DNA from: Candidatus Nomurabacteria bacterium UBA5155
GTDB taxonomy: Bacteria > Patescibacteriota > Minisyncoccia > Phycocordibacterales > UBA9973
DNA length: 64,000 bases
Assembly: GCA_002413705.1 (NCBI GenBank)
Contig: DHXN01000011.1
Coordinates: 162 to 64,161 of the forward strand
Direction of reading: 5' to 3'
In this document: piece by piece, positions 10,960-46,945 of the stretch
Layout of the letters: every line of letters starts with the position of its first letter
Numbering within the stretch: the first letter of the stretch is position 1
Notes under the pieces: model-generated
What the model saw: only the letters and a program-made list of their open reading frames with translations
Databases searched by the model: none
Told to the model about the DNA's origin: nothing
Program-made: the position numbers and the translations under genes

Positions 10960-11684
10960 TGAACGATATCAAAATCACACCCGCAATATTGCCGCACTCA
11001 TACAAAGGAATTGAAATCCCCGTTGAACGAGTACTTGGTGCGGTCACTAATATTCAGATCGATATTGTCGATGGACATTTTTCGCCAAACCGAACCTGGC
11101 TTTTTAATAATAAAGATGAGGACACGCTTGAAGCTATTTATGAACAAGAAAAAGGCATGCCGTATTGGGAAGAATTGAATTATGAATTCGACTTGATGGT
11201 CAAAGACCCAGTCAAGGAAATGGAAATGTTTATTGCTCTGGGGCCGGCCAAAATGATTTTGCATGTAGAAGGACTTGAACAAGAAAAAACAGTTGCCTTT
11301 TTTGAGGGACTACCGGAAATTATTCGCAGTGCTATTGCCTTTGGTATTGCTATCAATATTGATACTGACCCGGTGGACATCGCGCCATATCTTCCCTATA
11401 TCGAAAGCATTCAATGCATGGGTATCAAGAATGTCGGCTATCAAGGACAAGTATTTGATGAAAGAGTGTTTGATCAAATTGAAAAAGTTCGTAGCATGTA
11501 TCCTGACAAATTTATCACCGTTGATGGAGGAGTATCTCTTGATAATGCCGCACAACTTGTCGAAGCTGGCGCAAGAGAACTTGTTATCGGTTCTGCACTC
11601 TTTCTCAATACTGATTCACGCGGTACAATAGATGCATTCAGACAGCTATGCAACAACGTGGTGATTTCACAATCAGGGAACTAG
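10959..11684 (+). CDS. rpe: Ribulose-phosphate 3-epimerase family
   Basis: DIVDGHFSPN and C-terminal VDGGVSL...GSALF TIM-barrel motifs. Confidence 0.8.
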   Translation: MNDIKITPAILPHSYKGIEIPVERVLGAVTNIQIDIVDGHFSPNRTWLFNNKDEDTLEAIYEQEKGMPYWEELNYEFDLMVKDPVKEMEMFIALGPAKMILHVEGLEQEKTVAFFEGLPEIIRSAIAFGIAINIDTDPVDIAPYLPYIESIQCMGIKNVGYQGQVFDERVFDQIEKVRSMYPDKFITVDGGVSLDNAAQLVEAGARELVIGSALFLNTDSRGTIDAFRQLCNNVVISQSGN

Positions 11685-12517
11685 AACTAAAAGCCAACGA
11701 TATCCGTCAGTCGATTATTTCAATGCTGCTCGAAGCGGGAAGTGGGCACACTGCCGGACCGCTTGGCATGTCCGACGTCTTCACTGCATTGTATTTTGAA
11801 TTACTTCGTCATGATCCTCAAAATCCCACATGGCCAGAACGCGATCGTCTTGTGCTTTCAAATGGACATATCTGTCCTGTCTTGTACGCCACCATGGCGC
11901 ACTCAGGATATTTCCCGGTAGAGGAATTACTCACGCTTCGCAAATTTGGGTCACGATTGCAAGGCCATCCGCATCGAGATTTCCTGCCATACTTGGAAAA
12001 CTCTTCCGGACCGCTTGGCTCCGGCCTTTCGCAGGCAGTCGGCATGGCGATTGCTGATCGCATGGACAATGGCGCAGCAACACCTCGGACAATATATTGT
12101 CTGCTTGGTGACGGCGAGCTCGATGAAGGTAATAACTGGGAAGCTATCATGCTGGGAGGAAAAGAAAAACTGCACAACTTGCTCGCAATCGTTGATCGCA
12201 ATAACATTCAGATCGACGGCTACACAGAAGATATCATGCCGCTTGATTCATTGAATGAAAAATGGGCAAGCTTCAATTGGCATGTCCAAGAAATTGATGG
12301 CAATAACATCCAGGCAGTGATAGATGCCGTGAACAAGGCAAAAGCTGTTTTTGAAAAACCCTCAGTCATCATCGCGCGTACCATTCCTGGCAAGGGCGTG
12401 AAGGAATTCGAACGAAAATTTGAATGGCACGGCAAGACACCCAACAAAGATGAAGCAAAGATGGCACTCGATGAACTTCGCACATTAGGAGGAAAAATTA
12501 AGAGTGAGCACCAATAG
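11648..12517 (+). CDS. Transketolase, N-terminal (TPP-binding) subunit (split tkt)
   Basis: GSGHTAGPLGMSDV, HPHRDFLPYLENSSGPLGSGL motifs. Confidence 0.9.
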   Translation: MQQRGDFTIRELELKANDIRQSIISMLLEAGSGHTAGPLGMSDVFTALYFELLRHDPQNPTWPERDRLVLSNGHICPVLYATMAHSGYFPVEELLTLRKFGSRLQGHPHRDFLPYLENSSGPLGSGLSQAVGMAIADRMDNGAATPRTIYCLLGDGELDEGNNWEAIMLGGKEKLHNLLAIVDRNNIQIDGYTEDIMPLDSLNEKWASFNWHVQEIDGNNIQAVIDAVNKAKAVFEKPSVIIARTIPGKGVKEFERKFEWHGKTPNKDEAKMALDELRTLGGKIKSEHQ

Positions 12518-13511
12518 TATGTTAAATGCTGAATTAAAACTGAATGTAAAGATTTTCTCTGACGATGTCGAGCAGATGCCGATTCGCAAGGGATTTGGTG
12601 AAGGTTTGGCACAAGCCGGGGAGAGTAATAAAAATATCGTGGCATTGTGCGCAGACCTGACCGAATCGACGCAAATACATATCTTCAAAGGAAAGTTTCC
12701 TGAGCGCTTCGTGGAAATTGGTGTGGCGGAACAAAATTTGGCAGCAGTGGCTTCTGGCATGGCTGCCATGGGCAAGTATCCATTCTTCTCTTCGTATGCC
12801 ATGTTCAACCCAGGCAGAAATTGGGAACAGATTCGTACCACTATTTGTTATAATGATCGCCCTGCTGTCATTGTGGGTAGTCATGCTGGCGTCTCAGTCG
12901 GACCTGATGGCGGCACGCATCAAGCTATCGAAGATATTGCCATCACTCGCGTGCTGCCAAACATGACAGTGATTTCTCCTTGTGATGCAATCCAGGCAAA
13001 AAAGGCAACACTTGCACTATCTGCAGCTCCTCGCATTGCATACCTTCGTCTTGCTCGTGAGAAAACGCCGATCATCACTACTGAAGAAACATCATTTGAA
13101 ATTGGCAAAGGACAAATTTTATACAGACCCGATGGGATTGCTCAGGTAGCGATTATTGCGACGGGCGCGCTTGTTGCCAATGCACTTCGCGCTGCAAAAG
13201 ATTTAGATAAGAAAGGCGTAAGAGTGATCGTGGCAAATATTCATACCATCAAACCTATTGATACTGAATTACTCGTGCAGTTGGCAAAAGAAACTAAAGC
13301 CATTGTGTCAGTGGAAGAACATCAGGTTGCAGGTGGACTCGGCAGTGTCATTGCAGAAACGCTTGCGAAAATATATCCCGTGGCAATGGAATTCATCGGT
13401 GTCCAAGATCGTTTTGGTCAGTCAGGCACGCCACAAGAACTTATTGAAAAATACGGCATGGGTCAGGATGCCATCACTGCAGCAGTCGTAAAAATTATTG
13501 ATCGCAAATAA
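12504..13511 (+). CDS. Transketolase, C-terminal (pyrimidine-binding) subunit
   Basis: FVEIGVAEQNLAAVASGMA motif; overlaps N-subunit by 14 nt. Confidence 0.9.
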   Translation: MSTNSMLNAELKLNVKIFSDDVEQMPIRKGFGEGLAQAGESNKNIVALCADLTESTQIHIFKGKFPERFVEIGVAEQNLAAVASGMAAMGKYPFFSSYAMFNPGRNWEQIRTTICYNDRPAVIVGSHAGVSVGPDGGTHQAIEDIAITRVLPNMTVISPCDAIQAKKATLALSAAPRIAYLRLAREKTPIITTEETSFEIGKGQILYRPDGIAQVAIIATGALVANALRAAKDLDKKGVRVIVANIHTIKPIDTELLVQLAKETKAIVSVEEHQVAGGLGSVIAETLAKIYPVAMEFIGVQDRFGQSGTPQELIEKYGMGQDAITAAVVKIIDRK

Positions 13512-37969: not shown

Positions 37970-38081
37970 AGTTCTAGTATATCAAAAAATTATAAAGATT
38001 TTGCGGGACTTATTCAGGTTTTAATTGGTTATTTAGTAAGCATTTTCGTATAATAATCTCATAATAATTTTATATTTTTTT

Positions 38082-38756
38082 ATGCGAATCCTTATTATTG
38101 AAGATGACACTGACACGCAAGAGTTTTTGGAAGACAGATTGAAAGCAAAAGGAGTTGCAGTGGATTGCGCCAGCACAGGCACTCGCGGTATTTATCTTGC
38201 CCAAATGAATGACTATGATGTGATATTGCTTGATCATGGATTGCCGGAGAAAAATGGTTTTATTGTTTGCGAAGAAATTCGTGCCAGTGGTAAAAACACT
38301 CCAATCATTATGATTTCGGTCAGTGATGCGGTGAGTTATAAAATTAGAGGACTGACAATCGGCGCAGATGACTACGTGACCAAACCGTTTTCTTTTGAAG
38401 AAGTGTATGCGCGAATAGAGGCGGTACTTCGTCGTCCCAATAAAGTACAGAGCAAAATACTTACTATTGATGATTTGGTATTGGATATCACGAAACAAAT
38501 CGTCACTCGTGATAGTAAGCCGATTTATCTGACACGTAAAGAGTTTGCCGTGCTTGAATATTTGCTCAAACACAAAAGTCAGGTCATCACGCGCGGCATG
38601 CTGATGGAGCATGTCTGGGACGTCAGTCTTGATCCATTTTCCAACACTATTGAAACGCATATTTTGAATGTCCGTCGCAAAATAGAGACACCCGATAAGT
38701 TGAAGTTGATTCATAGTGTTTCCGGACGAGGCTACAAGATCGATCTTGAGAAATAA
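38082..38756 (+). CDS. OmpR-family response regulator
   Basis: Receiver domain Asp, C-terminal winged-helix. Confidence 0.9.
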   Translation: MRILIIEDDTDTQEFLEDRLKAKGVAVDCASTGTRGIYLAQMNDYDVILLDHGLPEKNGFIVCEEIRASGKNTPIIMISVSDAVSYKIRGLTIGADDYVTKPFSFEEVYARIEAVLRRPNKVQSKILTIDDLVLDITKQIVTRDSKPIYLTRKEFAVLEYLLKHKSQVITRGMLMEHVWDVSLDPFSNTIETHILNVRRKIETPDKLKLIHSVSGRGYKIDLEK

Positions 38757-38858
38757 TTTATCAAAACTTTGGATATATTTGACCATCTATTATTTATACT
38801 AAAGATGAGCTATAGTAATCGAATAGCTCAACATTAGACCTACTAATCTTATATATCT

Positions 38859-38966
38859 ATGAAAAAAATAATGGAAACCCTACTCACCACACCAGAGGCT
38901 CGTGACGAAGCGTCAGCGAAAAACAGTGCCTACGAGCAAACCACTTTCACCCCTTGGGCTGACTAA
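38859..38966 (+). CDS. Possible 35-aa small ORF between RR and HK
   Basis: Promoter-like TTGACC...TATACT and 7-bp inverted repeat upstream; very tentative. Confidence 0.2.
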   Translation: MKKIMETLLTTPEARDEASAKNSAYEQTTFTPWAD

Positions 38967-38993
38967 ACATAGTCCGCATCTCTCCTACATACC

Positions 38994-40499
38994 ATGAATA
39001 CTCGTCCTCGAATAAGCACTACTACACATTCCGATCCATATTCCCTCAGTTTATTCGGGCGTAGTATTCATGGCGTGTATGAACATTGCATTGCGGCAAA
39101 ATCTGAAAATGAAGACATTAAACGCCAAGAATTTATTCTGAATGTTATTCTTTGTTGCATTATTCCCTTTCTGATCGCGCTCGACGTTGTCGTTGCCACA
39201 AATACCATCCGAGAAGGTGTGCAGTATCACGGCATTTCATTTTTGAAATTTAGTAGCATTGTATTGGTCGCCATGTACTTGCTGTTACTTTCTCGAAAAG
39301 GATTCTATAGAATAGCTATCTACGTTTTCTTGACATTGTATTTCATTGCAACCACCTACGGAGCAGCACATTGGGGCGTGGAACTTCCCATGGTTGCCAT
39401 CAGTTACACGGTCATGATTGTCATCTCCAGTATATTAGTCTCAACTCGATTTGCTTTTTTGTTCACCACTATTATTTCATTGACCATTGTATTGATAACG
39501 TATTTGCAAATACATAATGTACTTCATCCGATACTGCATTGGAAAATTGCCACTATTCAAAATACAGATTCAATCGAGTTGGCAATCATTTTCTTTTTGG
39601 TAGTGGGCATATCTTGGCTTTCTAATAGAGAAATTGAACGTTCTTTAAAACGTGCCCATGCTTCCGAAAAAGCACTGCTCGAAGAGCGAGATTTATTGGA
39701 AATAAAAGTTGAAGAGCGCACAAGAAAATTGAAAGAAACACAAGGAGATAAAATATCGCAACTCTATAAATTTGCAGAATTCGGTAAACTCTCATCAGGT
39801 ATATTTCATGATCTTATGAATACGTTGAATGTTGTAGTGATCAACGCGACTCGAGTCGAGGACTCTCCTGAGCATTTACCTGAATTTAAAAATTATCTCC
39901 ATAAAACGGTGGCCGCCAGTAAGCGAATGGGTATCTATATCGACAGTGTGCGAAAACAAATTGCTGATAACAATGCTCTTACGGCATTTTCTTTAGAACA
40001 TGAAATCAGTGATGCAATTGATATCTTGCACTATCGTGCTCGTGAAGCGCAGGTGGTTTTCAATCTGCATGCAAAAGATGACATTGTTATCAATGGTAAT
40101 GCATTTAAATTTTATCAAGTTGTGTTAAATCTTTTATCCAATGCAGTAGATGCCTGTGAACACACCGGTCGCCAAAATACCATTAATATAATCATTGCCA
40201 TGGGATCTGATAAAAAGAGTGCCACGCTGATTATTCGAGATAACGGTTGTGGTATTCCCATCTCTAATATCGACACCATCTTCAATCAGTTCTTCACGAC
40301 CAAATCATACGGCAAAGGTATGGGGCTAGGACTCTCTCAAACAAAACAAATAGTTGAACAAGAATTTGACGGTACCATCAAAGTTACTAGTACTGAACAC
40401 AAAGGCAGCACATTTATTATTACTTTCCCATTTATATCTAATGATGCATCAGAAATTCAAGAATCCAAATCAGAAACAAATACAAATAGCATGTCATAA
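38994..40499 (+). CDS. Intramembrane-sensing sensor histidine kinase
   Basis: ~6 TM N-terminus, HDLMNTLN H-box, N/G1/G2 ATPase boxes. Confidence 0.85.
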   Translation: MNTRPRISTTTHSDPYSLSLFGRSIHGVYEHCIAAKSENEDIKRQEFILNVILCCIIPFLIALDVVVATNTIREGVQYHGISFLKFSSIVLVAMYLLLLSRKGFYRIAIYVFLTLYFIATTYGAAHWGVELPMVAISYTVMIVISSILVSTRFAFLFTTIISLTIVLITYLQIHNVLHPILHWKIATIQNTDSIELAIIFFLVVGISWLSNREIERSLKRAHASEKALLEERDLLEIKVEERTRKLKETQGDKISQLYKFAEFGKLSSGIFHDLMNTLNVVVINATRVEDSPEHLPEFKNYLHKTVAASKRMGIYIDSVRKQIADNNALTAFSLEHEISDAIDILHYRAREAQVVFNLHAKDDIVINGNAFKFYQVVLNLLSNAVDACEHTGRQNTINIIIAMGSDKKSATLIIRDNGCGIPISNIDTIFNQFFTTKSYGKGMGLGLSQTKQIVEQEFDGTIKVTSTEHKGSTFIITFPFISNDASEIQESKSETNTNSMS

Positions 40500-42306
40500 C
40501 GCGCTTCAATTCATAGGATCACAATCAGAGCAGTCAGTATTTTACAACGGCCTTATTGTTGCCGCGCTTAAACATATAGACACTGAAGGAAGTCGCTTTA
40601 TAAAACAAAAAGCTGTAGCGATACTGTTAGCAAAAAAGAGTGTTGCGTGGTCATTTAGCTACGGCGATTCATACCCCGATGATTTGGATGACACTTGTAT
40701 TGCCTTGAATGCTATGTATCAAGTTACTCCGGAAATTATCACCGAAGAAGTCTTGGCATCCATCACCTCGATACTTATCGCAAATGAATATGCAGCCGGT
40801 GGTCCGTATCAAACATGGATACTGCCCGATCACCCGCAACAGTGGCACGATATTGATGTGGTAGTAAATAGCAATATCGCTTTATTTTTATCACAGTTTG
40901 GTATCGTTCTTCCGAAACTGCAAGAATATTTTGATGATCTAATTTTGCAAAAAAAATGTACATCACAGTATTATTATCATGAGATCATTGTTATATATTT
41001 TCTGGCGCGAGCCTATACTGGTGTACACAAAGACCTGCTTATTAGCACTATTTTGCAAAGCCAATCTGTTAACGGCAATTGGGGAAATCCCCTCTTCACC
41101 GCATTGGCAGTTAGTTCGCTCATACAACTTGGCGTACCGGCCGATAGGCTCGATGCTGCCATAGCATATCTGTTAGAAAGTGAAACTGATGGCAGATGGT
41201 CATCTCAGCCATTTTTTATTGAGTCTGTATACAATGATGAAATTACTTACAGCAGTTGTGATGCTCATGTCAGCGCTTGTTGTGTTGAAGCATTGACATT
41301 ATATCTCCGTGAAATGAGGAGAAATCAGCACACCGATAAAAAAATTGATTTAGAACACAAAATGAATACTTTCATCACCGCAGTTCTGCATACATGTCAA
41401 AAAGTTTTTTCGCACACCTCACTTTTATTGCAAACACAATTTTATCATTCATACACATTACTGACAGCAAAAGATCCCACTGATGAAATAACAATGTTAT
41501 CGTATAATTTTACATATGCATTGCGATCCACATTCAGTATCGAAGAACAAACACTTGTTGATTTGGCGGCATTGAATATATTGGGATGGGTTGGATATAG
41601 CACTTATGACGCCATACTCGACGGAGAAAATCAGATCGGCTATTTACCTATGGCAGGCTTGTGCATCCGCACAGTGTCAGATATCACTCATCATCTGATC
41701 AAAAATGATGATGATTACATGTATATTGATCGTATTCTTAGTGGTATTGCCACAAGTACAGCATGGGAATATGAACATTGTAAAATCAACAGCACTCTTC
41801 CTGATTATGGTTCATATGCGTGTTTGGCAGAAAAATCTCTCGGTCATGCATTGGGGCCTATCATTATCTGCTTGCTGTGCGGGCAATATGACCAAGCATA
41901 TGTCGTGGAAAAATTCTTTTTACATTATCTCATCGCGCGACAGCTCAATGACGACGCACATGATTGGGTTGAAGATCTGGAAAATGGATATATCAATAGT
42001 GTAAGCACAGATATTCTCAAAGCTTTCCAGCTACAGAGCGGTCAAACAGAGCTTGATCTTGCAAAACATATGCAATGGTTGCGAGATTATTTTTGGCAGC
42101 ATCACATAGATATTGTCTCCGAAACTATCATCGACCATTGTGCCACTGCTCGAGAACAATTAAAAAAGATCACCATCTTGAGAGATGTGACCTTTTTGGA
42201 ACAATTTCTTGTGCGACTTGAACATTCAGCGTTGCAAGCAGTCAGTGAACGAGACAGCACTAGAATTTTTCTCGCTCATTTCCTGAATACTACTGTGTTG
42301 AGGTAG
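40441..42306 (+). CDS. Large cytoplasmic protein with terpene-cyclase/prenyltransferase-like alpha/alpha-toroid motifs and a C-terminal Asp-rich motif
   Basis: DDLDDTC (cf. class II DxDDTA), QSVNGNWG and ETDGRW QW-like repeats, later NDDAHDWVE (DDxxD). Overlaps HK 3-prime end; ORF track start 40354. Confidence 0.5.
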   Translation: MMHQKFKNPNQKQIQIACHNALQFIGSQSEQSVFYNGLIVAALKHIDTEGSRFIKQKAVAILLAKKSVAWSFSYGDSYPDDLDDTCIALNAMYQVTPEIITEEVLASITSILIANEYAAGGPYQTWILPDHPQQWHDIDVVVNSNIALFLSQFGIVLPKLQEYFDDLILQKKCTSQYYYHEIIVIYFLARAYTGVHKDLLISTILQSQSVNGNWGNPLFTALAVSSLIQLGVPADRLDAAIAYLLESETDGRWSSQPFFIESVYNDEITYSSCDAHVSACCVEALTLYLREMRRNQHTDKKIDLEHKMNTFITAVLHTCQKVFSHTSLLLQTQFYHSYTLLTAKDPTDEITMLSYNFTYALRSTFSIEEQTLVDLAALNILGWVGYSTYDAILDGENQIGYLPMAGLCIRTVSDITHHLIKNDDDYMYIDRILSGIATSTAWEYEHCKINSTLPDYGSYACLAEKSLGHALGPIIICLLCGQYDQAYVVEKFFLHYLIARQLNDDAHDWVEDLENGYINSVSTDILKAFQLQSGQTELDLAKHMQWLRDYFWQHHIDIVSETIIDHCATAREQLKKITILRDVTFLEQFLVRLEHSALQAVSERDSTRIFLAHFLNTTVLR

Positions 42307-42538
42307 TATGAGAACTGTCAGTGGTTGTAGTAGTGGTTTGCTGATAGCTCGTCACCGGAGTAGTGGTGGTATACACATGTGTTGTTCCTGAAATCGGCAT
42401 AGTTTGCTCCACTTGCGTAGTGCCAGTAGTTGTGGGGAAATAATAATAAATACCGTGTGGCAATAAGTACACCACGGCGATAATGATAAGGATGATAATC
42501 ATTACAATAATAAGGGCTCGATTTGTGTGATCATGCAT
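42290..42538 (-). CDS. Single-TM small protein with Thr-rich extracellular tail
   Basis: IIVMIIILIIIAVVYLL helix then TTTGTT.../TTTTTTD low-complexity. Confidence 0.4.
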   Translation of the reverse strand: MHDHTNRALIIVMIIILIIIAVVYLLPHGIYYYFPTTTGTTQVEQTMPISGTTHVYTTTTPVTSYQQTTTTTTDSSHTTSTQ

Positions 42539-42588: not shown

Positions 42589-43455
42589 ATGGGAAATAAA
42601 CATCTCAATTTAATTAAAGAAACTTTTTCACACTGGCAGGACAAAGAGGCTTCACGAATGGGAGCAGCTATTTCTTACTATGCGATTTTTTCTATTGCCC
42701 CGTTACTTATCTTACTGATGGCCGTTGGTAGAATTATTTTTGACAGAAATACTACCACGACAACCATTGCTCGTGTACTAAATATAAGTGTTGGAAAAAA
42801 TCTTTCGTCTGTTATCCAAACACTTATTAACAACAGCTACCCTGTTCATACCGGGATCATCACCGCTATTGTCAGTGGTGTTGTCATCATCATCGCCGCA
42901 CTCGGTGTCATTGCTGAACTTAACAATGATCTTGATGAGCTGTGGAAAATTCCTTCGGCTACACAAACGGTTCAAACAACAAGCCAAACAATATGGAATT
43001 TTGTAAAAAACCGACTGATCGCAGTGTTACTGATTTTGTTATTTGGCATATTATTTATTTTTCTTGCGGCATTTGGTGTGTTCACTTCATTCTTTCATTA
43101 TTCATTGCCGGTTTTGCTGCAAAGTGGGTTAGCAATCAATATCCTGAACGGCATCGTTACCCTATTGGGTGGGACATTTTTATTTGCAATTATTTATCGC
43201 ATCTTGCCCGATACCAAGCTTCCTTGGAAAGAGCTAATTTGGGGCGCATTTATAACTTCGATTTTATTTCTGATCGGTAAATACTTAATCAGTTGGTACA
43301 TCGAATCATTTGGTGGCACAGCTGAATATGGTGCAGCAGGTTCACTGGTAGGTTTATTGCTATGGGTATACTACTCCGCACAAGTATTCTTCATTGGCAC
43401 GGCAGGAACATTTGTCTATTCAAAATTGTACGGACATCTTTCTAAAAGAGAATAA
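42589..43455 (+). CDS. YihY/BrkB family membrane protein
   Basis: Six TM, characteristic YihY profile. Confidence 0.8.
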   Translation: MGNKHLNLIKETFSHWQDKEASRMGAAISYYAIFSIAPLLILLMAVGRIIFDRNTTTTTIARVLNISVGKNLSSVIQTLINNSYPVHTGIITAIVSGVVIIIAALGVIAELNNDLDELWKIPSATQTVQTTSQTIWNFVKNRLIAVLLILLFGILFIFLAAFGVFTSFFHYSLPVLLQSGLAINILNGIVTLLGGTFLFAIIYRILPDTKLPWKELIWGAFITSILFLIGKYLISWYIESFGGTAEYGAAGSLVGLLLWVYYSAQVFFIGTAGTFVYSKLYGHLSKRE

Positions 43456-43461
43456 CCGTCA

Positions 43462-45216
43462 TTAGCTGGTGCGTTTTGCGTGCATCAACATATCGACAGC
43501 ATTTGTCAGCGATCCAGCTGGGGTGATAGCACCGCCATTCACAAAAAATATTTCATCAGCATTTTGAATCGTGTTCAAACGATGAGCGATAATGACTTTA
43601 GTGGTTTGTTTTGGCAATTTCTCAATCACCTCTTCAAGCAACCGCTCTGTCACGGTATCAATATTTGCAGTCGCTTCATCCAAAATGATCAGGTCAGGTT
43701 TTCGCAATACGGCACGCATAAATGCGATAAGTTGTCGCTGTCCGAGACTGATACTTTCTCCGTTTTGATTGACTGGAGTTTTTAACCCATTTTCGAATTG
43801 CGCTAACAGGGGTAGCAGCTCTGTTTCTTTCAAGACTTCCACCAGTTGTTCAGATGTTGAGTCTTTATAAAGCGGATTGGAGTAAAAAATATTATCCCCC
43901 AGTGTTCCGGTGAACAAAAACGGTTCTTGTAAAATAAACCCGATCTTTTGCGCGCGCGTGGCAGGATCGAGTGTCCGAATGTCGTTTCCTTCAAATAAAA
44001 TAGTGCCTCCTGTCGGATCATACAGTCGTGCCATCAGTGAAGCAGTTGTTGTTTTACCTCCTCCTGTTGGTCCAACCAACGCATAGGTTTCTCCGGGATT
44101 GAGCGATACAGAAACATCGCGTAATACTTCCTTTCCATCCACATAGGTGAACCCCACCGTTTGAAATGATAAACGTGGCCCTGACAATGAATGTGCGGCA
44201 GATCCTGCGAGTAACGGCATGTCATTTTGCAATGAGACAATGGCCGAAATACGATCCCAACTGGCCATAGCGGTTTGAAATGTTGCCCACAATGATGCCA
44301 TTTGACGCAATGGGTCATAGAGACGATTAGCATAAGTGATATAACTGATCAGAAAACCCAATGTGAAGTCACCGATTAAAATAAGATGGATACCGTACAC
44401 CAACACGATCAGTTGTGCAGCATTGGATGCAAAACTATAAATAGTGACAAAGACATTGTTGGCAATTCCTGCTTTCACTGAGGTAATAAAATTTTTGTAA
44501 TTTGCCGCTTCAAATTTTTCACGGAAATAGTCACGGCGATTAAACGCCACAATCACTTTGAAATTTCCCAAACTTTCTTGAATCTCAGCACTCATACCAC
44601 CGACTTCTTTCAAACTTTTAGCATTTTGTCGCTTCACCCATGGAGACAGCACTTGCGTTAGAAGCAACACGATCACTAGCGGCACAAGCGCTGCCAAACC
44701 AAGACGAAAATTGATAGAAAGAATAAAAACAACCGCGCCAACAATCAAAAAGATATTACCAACGAATTGCATCAATGACTGCGAGAAAAATTGATTGAGA
44801 TTATCAGTATCATTGTTGATACGAGAAATCAAATCACCGGCTTTGTTTTGATTGAAGAATGCAATGGGAAGTTGTTGCAGTTTTTCAAACACAGTGTTGC
44901 GCAACGAGAACAACAAACGCTGTCCAACACCACCCATCGTTTTGGTTTGAATATACGTTGCAATAAATGAACCAATATAAATAAGAAGCACAGTTGCGCT
45001 TGCCACTAACAATCCGTGAACCTGTTTTGTTTCGATATATTTGTTTACCGCTTCACCAATCAACAATGGCGCAACCAATGTCAGCCCGGAGTTTATGATA
45101 ATGGCAGCAAAGGTTATAAATAAACGCTGTCGCTCATACTTCAATAACGGCAGCAATTTTTTAAGCGCCGCAAGCACTGACCCATTTTTCTTTTCTGTGT
45201 TAAGAGTGTAATTCAT
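43462..45216 (-). CDS. ABC transporter, fused permease/ATP-binding (type I exporter half-transporter)
   Basis: 6 TM + Walker A GPTGGGKTT, signature LSLGQRQ. Confidence 0.9.
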   Translation of the reverse strand: MNYTLNTEKKNGSVLAALKKLLPLLKYERQRLFITFAAIIINSGLTLVAPLLIGEAVNKYIETKQVHGLLVASATVLLIYIGSFIATYIQTKTMGGVGQRLLFSLRNTVFEKLQQLPIAFFNQNKAGDLISRINNDTDNLNQFFSQSLMQFVGNIFLIVGAVVFILSINFRLGLAALVPLVIVLLLTQVLSPWVKRQNAKSLKEVGGMSAEIQESLGNFKVIVAFNRRDYFREKFEAANYKNFITSVKAGIANNVFVTIYSFASNAAQLIVLVYGIHLILIGDFTLGFLISYITYANRLYDPLRQMASLWATFQTAMASWDRISAIVSLQNDMPLLAGSAAHSLSGPRLSFQTVGFTYVDGKEVLRDVSVSLNPGETYALVGPTGGGKTTTASLMARLYDPTGGTILFEGNDIRTLDPATRAQKIGFILQEPFLFTGTLGDNIFYSNPLYKDSTSEQLVEVLKETELLPLLAQFENGLKTPVNQNGESISLGQRQLIAFMRAVLRKPDLIILDEATANIDTVTERLLEEVIEKLPKQTTKVIIAHRLNTIQNADEIFFVNGGAITPAGSLTNAVDMLMHAKRTS

Positions 45217-46945
45217 ATTTGTCAGTGCTTTGTTGCGATTGATAAATTTGCACGTATTCCGGAGACTGTTCCATCAGTGCTGCATGAGTTCCTTCGGCCA
45301 AGAGTTCTCCTTCCATCATCACGATAATATTGTCGTACTCGGTAATGGAGGAAATTTTTTGCGTAATAGAAATAAGCGTCAGATCCGGATAGTTCTTTCT
45401 GACATTTGCTAAAATACTTTCTTCAGTGCGGGTATCAACGCGTGCAGTGAAGTCATCCAAAAACAGAATACGCGGATTAAGTGCCAGAGCGCGCGCCAAC
45501 ATGATGCGCTGCTTCTGTCCTCCCGACAAACTGGCACCACGTTCTGAAACAACCGTCTCAAGTCCTTGTGGCAATGATGCAATCAACCCTTCAAGTTCTG
45601 CGGTAACAATTGCTTTGTCCAGGTCTGCATCAGTGACAGATGTGCTAAATGCAATATTTTCTCGAACTGTTGTGTTAAAAATTATACTGTCTTGAAACAC
45701 AAACCCTATTTGCGCGTGCAGGCTTTTTTGATCGTATTCTTTTAACGGTATGTCATCAAAAAATACAGTACCGTCAGTTGCAGCCAGCAATCCTGTCATA
45801 ACATACAGCAGTTGAGTTTTCCCGGCCGCAGTTGGTCCAATAATGGCATTTTTAGTGGTAGGTTTAATGTTAAATGACACGTCTTTCACTGCATGTTTTT
45901 CTCCGTACTGAACAGAAATATTTTTTACCGTGATAGCTCCGGTCAGCGGAGTGGTCACTGTGCCATTTTCTGTTGGTACTGGAGCATCAAGCACTTTATA
46001 CAAACGTTGGTATGAAGCATTGGCACGAGCGATGACATTACTCATAAAACCGATAACCAAGATCGGGAAAATAAGAATGGCAATATAACTGTTGAATGCA
46101 GTGAAGCTACCGATGGTCATACCTCCGACAATGACTGACTTTCCGCCGAAATACAACACCAACACAATAGCAACGTTGGCAACAAAACTAATAATTGGAA
46201 TAAGTCCCGCAAAAAAACCGACGATCTTCAAACCATTATCCTTGGCATCAGTGTTCACCTGTAAAAACTTTTCATATTCATGTTGCTGAGAATTCAAGAC
46301 ACGAATCAGTCCCGCACCCAAAATACTTTCATTAATGACATTATTCAGTCGATCGATAATCCCTTGTGTCTTCAAAAATAATGGACGTACTCTGCTCAAT
46401 GTAAAGAAAAATGTTCCACCAATTACTGGAATGATGAGTAAGACGTATAATGCCAAATGCCAATTTAATCCGATCAATAAAATACTTGCTCCGATAATAA
46501 TAAAAATAGAAGAGATGATTGACACCACTGCTTGCGAGACGAAAACTTTGATCGCATCTGCATCAGAAGTGATATTGGTGAGCAACACGGAAGGATTAGC
46601 GGTTTGAATATATGAAAATGCCTGCATTGAAATCTTGCGCATCAATTCCTTGCGAAGATCACGGGCCACTCGTTCCGAAGCATAGGTCTGCACAATATTT
46701 TGGGCATAGGTGAAAATAAAAATGCCGATAGTCGCAATAATAAATGTGATGATAGTGGTGTGGACCACCAGTGTGCCGTTAACAAAATGATCCAACGTGC
46801 TGGCAATAAGTTTTGGGATAAACAACGTAATTGCATTGCTAAATAAGGCTAAAATAATCAGCAAAATAAGCAAACTCCTGTATGGTATCAGGAGTGAAAA
46901 AATACTTGGCTGTTTTTGTGCTTCTGTTTTATTGTTCATGCTCAA
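45200..46945 (-). CDS. ABC transporter, fused permease/ATP-binding (partner of previous)
   Basis: LSGGQKQRIMLARAL; 17-nt overlap with downstream gene. Confidence 0.9.
   Translation of the reverse strand: MSMNNKTEAQKQPSIFSLLIPYRSLLILLIILALFSNAITLFIPKLIASTLDHFVNGTLVVHTTIITFIIATIGIFIFTYAQNIVQTYASERVARDLRKELMRKISMQAFSYIQTANPSVLLTNITSDADAIKVFVSQAVVSIISSIFIIIGASILLIGLNWHLALYVLLIIPVIGGTFFFTLSRVRPLFLKTQGIIDRLNNVINESILGAGLIRVLNSQQHEYEKFLQVNTDAKDNGLKIVGFFAGLIPIISFVANVAIVLVLYFGGKSVIVGGMTIGSFTAFNSYIAILIFPILVIGFMSNVIARANASYQRLYKVLDAPVPTENGTVTTPLTGAITVKNISVQYGEKHAVKDVSFNIKPTTKNAIIGPTAAGKTQLLYVMTGLLAATDGTVFFDDIPLKEYDQKSLHAQIGFVFQDSIIFNTTVRENIAFSTSVTDADLDKAIVTAELEGLIASLPQGLETVVSERGASLSGGQKQRIMLARALALNPRILFLDDFTARVDTRTEESILANVRKNYPDLTLISITQKISSITEYDNIIVMMEGELLAEGTHAALMEQSPEYVQIYQSQQSTDKYELHS

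Follow-up and report, generated by a model that had tools for sequence, protein, structure and literature searches.

The 64-kb window analysed here (64,000 nucleotides in all) contains a cassette of four genes, encoding in order a response regulator, a short Trp-containing peptide, a histidine kinase and a two-domain enzyme. The cassette is conserved and vertically maintained, its order recurs across Patescibacteria, and it is probably a peptide-pheromone system of the ComQXPA/PalPXQ kind, in which the enzyme would serve as maturase for a ribosomally made peptide signal. The cassette suggests that a terpene-decorated peptide signal is made and sensed, rather than a membrane lipid. A preliminary description of this DNA had proposed a free terpenoid under envelope-stress control; the Trp-peptide gene, together with the loss of the IPP motifs from the C-terminal domain and of the AsDMS arginines from the N-terminal one, points instead to a peptide-pheromone/RiPP cassette. 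CPR/Patescibacteria, to which a large part of bacterial diversity belongs, are host-dependent organisms with reduced genomes of about 1 Mb, and to our knowledge little is known of how they sense one another or these hosts. We found no signalling peptide of CPR/Patescibacteria described in the literature, nor any paper describing such a cassette in Patescibacteria.

The enzyme gene (40441-42306, + strand) encodes 621 aa, with an alternative start at 40444. Its longest open reading frame, 40354-42306 (+), begins with TTG, and the ATG at 40441 (or 40444) agrees with the N-termini of all homologues in the alignment. The public gene call P0001 is identical to the enzyme and starts at 40444 (620 aa). 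As the kinase gene ends at 40499, the two genes overlap by 59 nt (40441-40499; 56 nt if the start is 40444). Both the ~620-aa frame and the ~59-nt overlap had been seen in the preliminary description, and the tight coupling proposed there is real and conserved across loci. The enzyme family comprises ~1,500 clusters at 50% identity (E≤1e-30), with lengths of 620-670 aa, and has members in 298 GTDB species genomes. Of the loci listed, the best 80 are, by appearance, Patescibacteria MAGs, and the cassette is spread over labels such as Nomurabacteria, Saccharibacteria, Levybacteria and Doudnabacteria. In the AlphaFold model (pLDDT 94.6, pTM 0.87) the two domains of the enzyme are joined by a rigid helix of 49 residues. 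All residue conservation figures given below were computed over 198 family members.

The N-terminal half (residues ~1-290, 40441-41310, +) is the beta-domain of a class II terpene cyclase without gamma domain, and protonation-initiated cyclisation is predicted for it. Its fold is an alpha/alpha toroid nearest to known class II cyclases, as had been suspected, and the overall architecture is indeed that of no canonical SHC or diterpene cyclase. By sequence, its closest relatives are the HAD-TCbeta drimenol synthases (AsDMS, E 8e-14), whose HAD domain is absent from the enzyme according to Pfam profiles and the AlphaFold model. The segment DDLDDTC (residues 80-86, nt 40678-40698), rightly taken in the preliminary description for a class II acid motif, includes the DxDD general-acid motif D81-L-D83-D84 (40681-40692, +). 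PDDLDDT of the enzyme aligns with PDDLDTT of AsDMS (D331/D333) and with the DVDDT region of SHC, and is conserved family-wide (D81 99%, D83 99%, D84 98%, T85 99%). The proposed partner tyrosines of DxDD, Y177/Y178 (40969-40974, +), are 93-98% conserved and align to AsDMS Y426/Y427, which are essential by mutagenesis. Two QW-like repeats had also been claimed, QSVNGNW (residues 208-214) and ETDGRW (residues 248-253): both are present, but the second has E in place of the Q of the family consensus. This consensus consists of YLLxxQxxGxW, GxW and an N-terminal QxxDGSF; the tryptophans of the two G-x-W (W214 and W253) are retained in 74% and 87% of the members, and the third, N-terminal segment of most homologues is deleted in this enzyme. 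Finally, the diphosphate-binding arginines R378, R380, R425 and R513 of AsDMS are not conserved, and correspond to W135, D137 and variable positions, which fits a substrate other than a free prenyl diphosphate.

The C-terminal domain (residues ~325-615, 41413-42285, +), which we propose to be a Trp prenyltransferase, has the all-alpha fold of trans-isoprenyl-diphosphate synthases (IPPS), with FARM and SARM on facing helices. The DDxxD-type motif reported earlier, NDDAHDWVE (residues 503-511, nt 41947-41973), is conserved and sits in this separate isoprenoid-synthase-fold domain. It is part of Q501-L-N-D504-D505-A-H-D508-W-V-E-D512 (41941-41976, +), which aligns to FQxxDDxxD, i.e. a Gln followed by the SARM; Q501, D504, H507, D508 and D512 are 100% conserved, and D505 98%. 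A first Asp-rich motif had been overlooked: YDAILD (residues 389-394; family consensus YDDFLD, i.e. DDFLD), whose D390-A-I-L-D394 (41608-41622, +) corresponds in the alignment to the FARM of the neighbouring polyprenyl synthases, with D390 and D394 100% conserved. FARM, Gln and SARM are collinear with those of true polyprenyl synthases (score 32.3, against at most 20.8 for controls). The IPP/diphosphate-binding GKxxR and the FARM-proximal RRG, present in 17/17 neighbouring synthases, are absent from the enzyme family; PF00348 matched none of 58 family members, and none of the curated ComQ/polyprenyl_synt models (including IPR033965/PF00348) matched the C-domain. Trp prenyltransferases of the ComQ/PalQ/ChrPC/Ord1 type reportedly have as their hallmark a Gln that precedes the (pseudo-)SARM, and the C-domain combines the features of the ComQ type, namely the IPPS fold, a FARM and a Gln before the SARM. 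However, the pseudo-SARM of ComQ/StheQ binds no metal, whereas the C-domain retains a full DDxxD SARM, an extra invariant D512 and His507. It could therefore perform class I ionisation, and not Trp transfer.

Such an activity is central to the alternative of a free-terpenoid synthase under two-component control, which we consider unlikely. The enzyme would then be a minimal beta-alpha bifunctional class II/class I enzyme: the beta-domain would cyclise FPP or GGPP, and the alpha-domain would ionise the diphosphate to give a cyclic terpene, e.g. a hopanoid-like membrane modifier. Expression would follow the state of the membrane through the intramembrane kinase, as in DesK/DesR, the six TM segments and short loops of the kinase being in keeping with this, and the small ORF would either have nothing to do with the enzyme or serve regulation only. 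The DxDD and the two intact Asp-rich motifs, the spacing of D504/D508/D512 (i, i+4, i+8, like an NSE/DTE metal triad) and the neighbouring polyprenyl synthases would all be accounted for. There are precedents for cyclisation followed by removal of the diphosphate, in plant and bacterial bifunctional cyclases and in AsDMS (HAD-TCbeta; PDB 9mhs, 9m7d), which resembles the present enzyme as a gamma-less class II beta-domain fused to a second catalytic domain, with the D-x-D acid and the Tyr-Tyr pair conserved. But the partner domain of AsDMS is an N-terminal HAD phosphatase, compared to a C-terminal IPPS-fold domain here, and the arginines that bind the diphosphate of FPP in AsDMS are lost. Nor does a free terpenoid explain the RiPP-like leader/core Trp-peptide gene found in 71/73 cassettes, and the invariant Gln before the SARM, as a Trp-prenyltransferase hallmark, argues against it.

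Structurally, the C-domain comes closest to chain-elongating trans-IPPS enzymes, among them the prenyltransferase domain of the fungal PvCPS (7s09, 8v0f), in which a cyclase is likewise N-terminal and a prenyltransferase C-terminal. A PvCPS-like assembly line, with an active, chain-elongating C-domain making FPP or GGPP for the fused class II cyclase to convert into a cyclic prenyl diphosphate, would use the FARM and SARM that are kept. It is nonetheless very unlikely: the family lacks the GKxxR and RRG of the neighbouring synthases as well as any PF00348 match, stand-alone synthases are encoded alongside, and the peptide gene would again have no explanation. The two architectures also differ. 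PvCPS (alpha~beta-gamma; general acid D313, prenyltransferase mutant S723T) has a beta-gamma cyclase, a flexible linker of 125 residues (L567-T692) and an active chain-elongating prenyltransferase, whereas the present enzyme has no gamma domain, a rigid connecting helix and no IPP-binding motifs.

Between the regulator and kinase genes, where the preliminary description had left out any gene, lies a conserved, unannotated ORF for a 35-aa precursor peptide with a Trp (38860-38967, +), MKKIMETLLTTPEARDEASAKNSAYEQTTFTPWAD. In the peptide, a conserved leader precedes a variable stretch, and the invariant Trp stands two residues from the C-terminal end. With a peptide HMM, the ORF was detected in 71/73 related loci with usable upstream DNA, once and only once per locus, in each case immediately 5′ of the kinase gene and in its orientation; it is the sole match in the window (E 1e-14). 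Family peptides are 28-59 aa long (median 37). Their Trp stands 1-6 residues before the C-terminus (mode 2) and, like Arg15 and Leu9, shows no or almost no variation across loci. The small ORF is a real gene, with a clear coding signature in its codon-position differences (1237/912/2061) and an invariant Arg encoded by all 6 codons. The peptide has no Pfam or NCBIfam match, and the ComX family PF05952 was not reached. A gene of 35 codons, missed by most annotations, can change the reading of a whole locus.

About 30 nt upstream of the peptide start, we found a palindrome, GAGCTAT-N9-ATAGCTC (38807-38829), which has a single match in the window and 0 matches in 100 shuffles. The same palindrome occurs at the same position in three related loci (L001, L008 and L010); it is a candidate operator or RNA hairpin. 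This conserved palindrome, the Pro-Trp conserved near the stop codon and the location of the ORF immediately 5′ of the kinase and enzyme genes are what would be expected if the small ORF were a regulatory leader, i.e. a TnaC-like ribosome-arrest peptide with critical Trp and Pro controlling these two genes, and not a substrate. We attach little probability to this. Conservation is highest in the N-terminal 15 residues, and lowest in residues 16-30 and around the Trp, a pattern that is the opposite of that of arrest peptides and like that of RiPP and pheromone precursors. Moreover, 1 to 6 variable residues follow the Trp, and a scan between the ORF and the kinase gene detected no terminator-like site (G+C-rich stem-loop and T run).

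The kinase gene (38994-40499, +) encodes six TM segments with short loops (six hydrophobic segments within residues 51-209), followed by a DHp and a HATPase_c domain (E 2e-23); the DHp is generic, NtrB/AtoS/VirA-like, and not HisKA_3. We propose that this kinase is the receptor of the mature peptide, although the hypervariability that a pherotype receptor might show was not seen in its TM region. A kinase orthologue is found directly upstream of the enzyme gene in 79/84 loci (~95%). The five exceptions are three contigs cut at the enzyme gene, locus L018, where a kinase ORF lies ~750 nt upstream, and L057, the only one of the 84 without kinase. That the enzyme is a non-catalytic accessory, binding polyprenyl phosphate or lipid II and reporting the cell-wall precursor status to the kinase, would suit this near-invariant, overlapping pairing and the loss of the classical substrate-binding arginines and of the IPP site, but is highly improbable, as over ~200 sequences of ~35% overall identity the DxDD and its partner tyrosines, the Gln, both Asp-rich motifs and Lys/Arg-Ser reach 93-100% conservation, a pattern typical of active sites. 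The regulator gene (38082-38756, +) is of the OmpR type (Response_reg E 1e-25, Trans_reg_C E 3e-22; the GerE match is weak and under cut-off, with E 0.0012 and 18.9 bits versus 23.5), and an orthologue is present upstream of the kinase in 65/81 non-redundant related loci. In 17/81 loci the cassette has a canonical polyprenyl synthase as its direct neighbour, which in 4 of these 17 takes the place of the regulator (order synthase-peptide-kinase-enzyme). No conserved exporter or leader peptidase was found among the neighbours of related loci.

From these observations, we infer how the peptide-pheromone cassette might work. With its IPP site lost but its Gln and the two Asp-rich motifs retained, the C-domain would accept a prenyl diphosphate as donor, probably one of C15-C20 supplied by the polyprenyl synthase often encoded next door, and would transfer the prenyl group to the Trp of the peptide, like ComQ, PalQ and StheQ. 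The N-domain would use its DxDD acid and Tyr to cyclise the prenyl chain on the Trp, starting with protonation of the distal double bond; the ChrPC/NctPC maturases, and MstE on non-diphosphate substrates, are precedents for this. The lipopeptide would then be processed, exported and sensed by the co-encoded multi-TM kinase, and the regulator would adjust transcription, possibly of the cassette itself via the conserved palindrome. For the complete, self-contained CPR circuit, in which a ~37-aa peptide is prenylated on Trp, its chain is cyclised to a polycyclic terpene by a single fusion enzyme and a six-TM kinase senses the product, our confidence falls slightly short of an even chance.

The organisation resembles that of ComQXPA (polyprenyl-synthase-like ComQ, Trp peptide, multi-TM kinase and regulator, PMC4008528), whose loci were restricted to Firmicutes in a 2014 census (PMC4008528). 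In both, four adjacent same-strand genes encode a trans-IPPS-superfamily enzyme, a precursor with a Trp near its C-terminus, a multi-TM kinase and a regulator; the peptide gene is directly 5′ of the kinase gene, and the residues flanking the Trp are variable. However, the order is regulator-peptide-kinase-enzyme and not Q-X-P-A, the kinase is devoid of HisKA_3 (PF07730) and has 6 TM helices rather than the 8-10 of ComP, and the regulator is OmpR-type (Trans_reg_C) where ComA is GerE/LuxR-type (PF00196). The peptide (28-59 aa) is shorter than ComX (52-73 aa) and not PF05952, and the enzyme differs from ComQ by its 620-670 aa, its extra cyclase domain and the lack of a PF00348 match. PalP-PalX-PalQ of Paenibacillus (kinase, Trp peptide and prenyltransferase, PMC10853753) and StheQ-StheX of Sphaerobacter also have a trans-IPPS-fold Trp prenyltransferase beside a precursor whose Trp is C-terminal or penultimate (second from the end in StheX), and in the Pal system a histidine kinase is adjacent as well. 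PalQ and StheQ share the FARM and the Gln upstream of the (pseudo-)SARM, but are single-domain proteins without cyclase; PalX has a long NHLP leader, and StheQ a pseudo-SARM (NDxxD) that binds no metal, as opposed to the full DDxxD and D512 of the enzyme family.

According to its description in PMC13290415, ChrPC joins a trans-IDS-like P domain to an MstE-like cyclase domain, and Trp is prenylated before the prenyl group is cyclised; maturases of this type (Hubrich et al., Chem 2024, as summarised in PMC13290415) use C10-C20 donors. Compared with that description, the present enzyme likewise unites a trans-IDS-like domain and a gamma-less, MstE-like cyclase in one polypeptide, with a Trp precursor adjacent. 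Its cyclase is N-terminal and its prenyltransferase-like domain C-terminal. It differs in that the precursor is ~37 aa long with its own leader type, the gene belongs to a two-component cassette, the host is a patescibacterium and the activity is predicted. MstE itself, a monodomain class II meroterpenoid cyclase (PDB 6sbb), is a stand-alone protein of ~350 aa, with DxD instead of DxDD and a small molecule, not a peptide, as substrate.

Given that the cassette is conserved in 298 species-level genomes and ~1,500 clusters, these bacteria apparently invest scarce isoprenoid precursors in lipidating a peptide for which they keep a dedicated receptor. If our reading is correct, the ultra-small CPR episymbionts would have their first described intrinsic cell-cell signalling system, and ComX-type prenyl-Trp signalling would reach far beyond Firmicutes. 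ChrPC-like "terpene-RiPP" chemistry would gain a physiological role: cyclo-terpenylated Trp has so far been reported as a RiPP product only, never as a signal. Pherotype-like specificity would come from the variable residues that flank the Trp, the enzyme would be a compact cyclase-prenyltransferase for peptide lipidation, and a synthetic or heterologously produced pheromone would offer a tractable handle on the largely uncultivated CPR bacteria.

As for the surroundings of the cassette, the AT-rich islet proposed earlier is not real: the GC content is 0.38-0.40 versus ~0.42 overall, bins just as low are present elsewhere, and a 48%-identical relative has the same gene order. YihY/BrkB, the Thr-rich peptide and the ABC pair, previously included in the same unit, proved to be neighbours only in the close clade.

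The enzyme ORF that the preliminary description had placed at 40441-42306 on the forward strand, and likened to terpene cyclases, proved real, with correct coordinates, as judged from the N-termini of its homologues and a public gene call. The longest frame spans 40354-42306 and opens with a TTG. This start found no support in the homologue N-termini and was rejected; ATG 40441 (or 40444), in contrast, coincides with the N-termini of all homologues in the alignment, and P0001, an identical 620-aa public gene call, starts at 40444. The overlap with the kinase gene, which ends at 40499, is indeed 59 nt. The four motifs first noticed were all located, DDLDDTC at residues 80-86, QSVNGNW at 208-214, ETDGRW at 248-253 and NDDAHDWVE at 503-511, and one had been overlooked: YDAILD (residues 389-394), a first Asp-rich motif (FARM) with the family consensus YDDFLD, in which D390 and D394 are 100% conserved. 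In a family alignment of 198 sequences, D81, D83, D84 and T85 were conserved at 98-99%, D504, D508 and D512 at 100%, and the two G-x-W tryptophans at 74% and 87%. These motifs are not chance matches. A segment of about 16-22 residues that most homologues have, and that includes the first QW-like motif of the family (QxxDGSFLS...), is missing from the window enzyme. The deletion site lies in the region 40525-40540, around residues 29-33 (columns 48-70 of alignment A1), and the AlphaFold2 model is still confident there.

Single-sequence searches of the enzyme against Pfam, NCBIfam and the PDB gave no match; information came only from the family profile and the structure. The family is sizeable and of constant length (600-670 aa), with at least 348 matches in a word-indexed database, 1,496 clusters at 50% identity (E≤1e-30) among 1.84 billion representatives, and relatives in 298 of 185,579 GTDB species genomes. 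Among the best 80 loci, the named sources were all Patescibacteria-type MAGs, and the few labels reading 'Gammaproteobacteria', 'Vitreimonas' or 'Methylomirabilota' look like mislabelled MAGs. Three homologues (P0011, P0030 and P0040) carry the precomputed Pfam tag PF28380, absent from the Pfam release scanned, which may be a recent family covering part of the enzyme. An AlphaFold2 model built with 58 homologues (pLDDT 94.6, pTM 0.87) is all-helical, its two domains being linked by a continuous 49-residue helix (residues 274-322).

Fold, acid motif and QW repeats all place the N-terminal domain in the class II cyclase superfamily, as first suggested. In the drimenol synthase AsDMS, mutagenesis showed D331, D333, Y426 and Y427 to be essential (PMC12365925); their equivalents in the enzyme, D81, D83, Y177 and Y178, are conserved at 93-99%. 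The AsDMS arginines that bind the diphosphate of FPP (R378, R380, R425 and R513) have W135, D137 and variable positions as their counterparts. With the acid residues intact and these arginines replaced, the domain is a gamma-less class II cyclase beta-domain that keeps its acid machinery and would differ in its head-group site. The meroterpenoid cyclase MstE, which recognises a head group other than diphosphate, is comparable in that the N-terminal domain likewise lacks the diphosphate-binding arginines. The one match from a tblastn search against plasmids was a 1,218-aa Nostoc protein whose middle domain resembles a cyclase (locus L085, 5919-9575, on plasmid pC052_D of Nostoc sp. C052; annotated as a tetratricopeptide repeat, or TPR, protein), in which a region is 27% identical to the cyclase domain (E 6e-12). 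Its neighbours are glycosyltransferase, sulfotransferase and AMP-binding fragments. It has no bearing on the cassette, and is another unexplored fusion context of gamma-less class II cyclase domains.

The C-terminal domain had no sequence match among curated families, and its fold is that of the trans-isoprenyl diphosphate synthases (IPPS fold), with Foldseek target-normalised TM-scores of about 0.7. An hhalign comparison with one polyprenyl synthase was not significant; the relationship is interpretable only as a profile-profile alignment with controls, and the domain was compared in this way with 17 genuine polyprenyl synthases encoded by neighbouring genes. The score was weak (32.3, P 0.0017), with an alignment covering the whole domain, and all controls fell below it: at most 20.8 for 30 column-shuffled alignments, 17.1 for the reversed alignment and 16-20 for unrelated families. 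YDDFLD was aligned to the FARM, and ARQLNDDAHD to FQxxDDxxD, the Gln plus second Asp-rich motif (SARM). The IPP/diphosphate-binding motifs GKxxR and RRG, found in all 17 true synthases, have no counterpart in the enzyme family; near the position of the synthase 'KT' motif, though some 3 residues out of register, the family has an invariant Ser preceded by a basic residue (K/R465-S466). The domain is a member of the IPPS-fold superfamily, and neither a PF00348 protein nor a chain-elongating synthase; we read it as a domain that would bind and ionise a prenyl donor without elongating it.

The genomic context was then considered. Exact protein look-up gave four contexts, three of which kept the order regulator-kinase-enzyme, and this order persists even where identity is down to 32-35% and the remaining neighbours are unrelated. 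In a survey of 84 loci (81 non-redundant), an orthologous kinase gene, 38994-40499 in the window, lay directly upstream of the enzyme gene on the same strand in 79. Among the 5 exceptions, the contigs of L042, L063 and L067 break off at the enzyme gene and L018 has a kinase ORF about 750 nt upstream, which leaves L057 as the sole surveyed locus truly without a kinase. Of the 81 loci, 65 contain the OmpR-type regulator (38082-38756). The kinase contains six hydrophobic segments separated by short loops, and its catalytic core is generic and NtrB/AtoS-like. Its transmembrane region is not hypervariable, so that this test gave no support to a co-diversification of the pherotype-receptor kind.

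The 'spacer' of some 230 bp between regulator and kinase contains a small ORF, 38860-38967, encoding MKKIMETLLTTPEARDEASAKNSAYEQTTFTPWAD. An HMM of this peptide, run on 82 sources (the 81 loci and the window), gave exactly one match per locus in 71 of them, invariably at the same position and on the same strand; as 9 of the 11 misses were contigs truncated upstream, the peptide is present in 71 of 73 loci. In the 64-kb window the sole match had an E value of 1e-14, the next best being 2.2. The peptides measure 28-59 aa (median 37) and have a conserved leader, M-K-K-h-h-x-K-h-L-T-D-K-x-A-R, a variable middle, and an invariant single Trp 1-6 residues (mode 2) before the C-terminus, preceded by Pro in 55 of 71. 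By segment, conservation fell from 0.44 in the leader to 0.18 in the middle, and stood at about 0.1 in the residues on either side of the Trp. Substitutions by codon position (1237/912/2061) favour third positions, and the invariant Arg, Leu and Pro use 6, 6 and 4 codons, respectively. We conclude that the small ORF is a real gene. It was left uncalled in 2 of the 4 contigs with gene calls examined. A membrane protein was rejected, the window copy being hydrophilic. About 30 nt upstream of the peptide gene lies a perfect palindrome, GAGCTAT-N9-ATAGCTC (38807-38829), unique in the window and found in none of 100 shuffles. It occurs at the same position in L001 (6382-6401), L008 (5301-5320) and L010 (5377-5397), loci whose enzymes are only 43-48% identical to the window enzyme, and may serve as the regulator's operator or fold as an RNA hairpin. 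A scan for promoters and terminators found them no more numerous than in shuffled sequence.

Small peptides with a Trp near the C-terminus have precedents. In ComQXPA, the polyprenyl-synthase-like ComQ prenylates such a Trp in the small precursor ComX, and the product is sensed by the multi-TM kinase ComP and the regulator ComA (PMC4008528); the PalP-PalX-PalQ clusters of Paenibacillus likewise comprise kinase, precursor and prenyltransferase (PMC10853753). StheQ of Sphaerobacter prenylates the penultimate Trp of StheX; in its structure, which has an IPPS fold, the donor binds at the FARM, and a Gln lies one turn ahead of a pseudo-SARM. As described in a 2026 review (PMC13290415), a Gln before the (pseudo-)SARM is common to these Trp prenyltransferases, and ChrPC is a trans-IDS-like prenyltransferase domain fused to an MstE-like cyclase domain, which cyclises the prenyl group once transferred to Trp. 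By that description, the enzyme has the domain composition of ChrPC-type maturases, with an invariant Gln501 ahead of the SARM and the IPP site lost; its gene shares the cassette with the Trp-peptide gene, only the kinase gene lying between. These likenesses, together with the replaced arginines, lead us to propose three steps: the C-terminal domain would move a C15-C20 prenyl group onto the peptide Trp, the N-terminal domain would protonate and then cyclise the attached chain, and the matured peptide would be exported and then sensed by the kinase. We infer all three from fold, motifs, synteny and precedent. The cassette would work like ComQXPA or PalPXQ without being a member: its kinase and regulator belong to other families, the gene order is different, and neither peptide nor enzyme matches the Com models.

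The best surviving alternative is that the enzyme is a beta-alpha synthase of a free terpene under the control of membrane state. It is favoured by the complete DDxxD of the C-terminal domain, accompanied by D512 and H507, whereas StheQ has a metal-free pseudo-SARM, but it leaves the peptide gene unexplained and we hold it to be rather improbable. Less likely are an assembly line of the PvCPS type, a leader or arrest peptide encoded by the small ORF, and a function of the enzyme as a non-catalytic accessory protein. We class the locus, provisionally, as a cassette, conserved across Patescibacteria, that would serve prenyl-Trp peptide signalling and contains a cyclase-prenyltransferase fusion. 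A literature search for terpene cyclases in Patescibacteria returned a single paper, on algal bacterial communities and unrelated to the subject, SHC was not found in CPR by a survey of polycyclic triterpene synthesis (PMC7306690), the ComQXPA census reported no loci outside Firmicutes (PMC4008528), and the 2026 StheQ work presented Chloroflexi as an expansion; it is possible that Hubrich et al. have already listed CPR fusions of this kind.

A phmmer search of the window turned up no polyprenyl synthase. Elsewhere, a canonical polyprenyl synthase was the next commonest neighbour (17 of 81 loci), tied with ABC transporter genes; its gene invariably abuts the cassette, whereas the ABC genes lie 0.4-6 kb off. 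It stands directly downstream of the enzyme gene or, in 4 loci, replaces the regulator (L017 382-1419, L030 4193-5239, L064 4065-5102 and L083 4216-5268), giving an order synthase-peptide-kinase-enzyme that matches comQ-comX-comP. The SARM is degenerate (FQIWDDxMN) in the synthases of L017, L030 and L083, and reads FQIKNDILD in L064. These four may supply the prenyl donor or may themselves modify the peptide.

The other neighbours that the preliminary description had joined to the unit did not hold as members. BrkB/YihY (42589-43455, forward strand) recurred in 7 of 81 loci, all of a close Nomurabacteria-like clade. The heterodimeric ABC exporter pair downstream (43462-46945, reverse strand) is devoid of a C39 peptidase domain; ABC half-transporter or ABC ATPase genes occurred 0.4-6 kb away in 17 of 81 loci, mainly in the close clade and in several beyond it. 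The pair could export the peptide, though it is not among the conserved genes of the cassette. The Thr-rich 82-aa single-TM protein (42290-42538, reverse strand), convergent with the enzyme gene and overlapping its last 17 nt, has a weak DUF3139 match (E 0.003); its position is not kept in related loci, and it did not recur among neighbour clusters. The supposed AT-rich islet does not stand out in composition from the rest of the window, and an island origin was rejected with it. In L002 (3337-4712 and 6551-7995), a Doudnabacteria MAG locus on the same contig as L023, a diversity-generating-retroelement-like pair, RVT_1 reverse transcriptase and bAvd, lies with integrase genes 3-4 kb upstream of the cassette, and the kinase looks split into a 426-aa gene without Pfam hits and a short C-terminal fragment. 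In the window, Pfam scans of 30 other ORFs revealed no isoprenoid-pathway gene among ordinary CPR housekeeping genes (Obg, GatB, GAPDH, RPE, FBA, RF, MurG, FtsW, MraY, DnaB). A 238-aa antisense ORF (38070-38786, reverse strand) spanning the whole response-regulator gene almost certainly arises from the mechanical listing of ORFs in AT-rich sequence. The transketolase (11615-13511, forward strand) is encoded by two overlapping ORFs, one for the N-terminal TPP-binding part and the other for the pyrimidine-binding and C-terminal parts.
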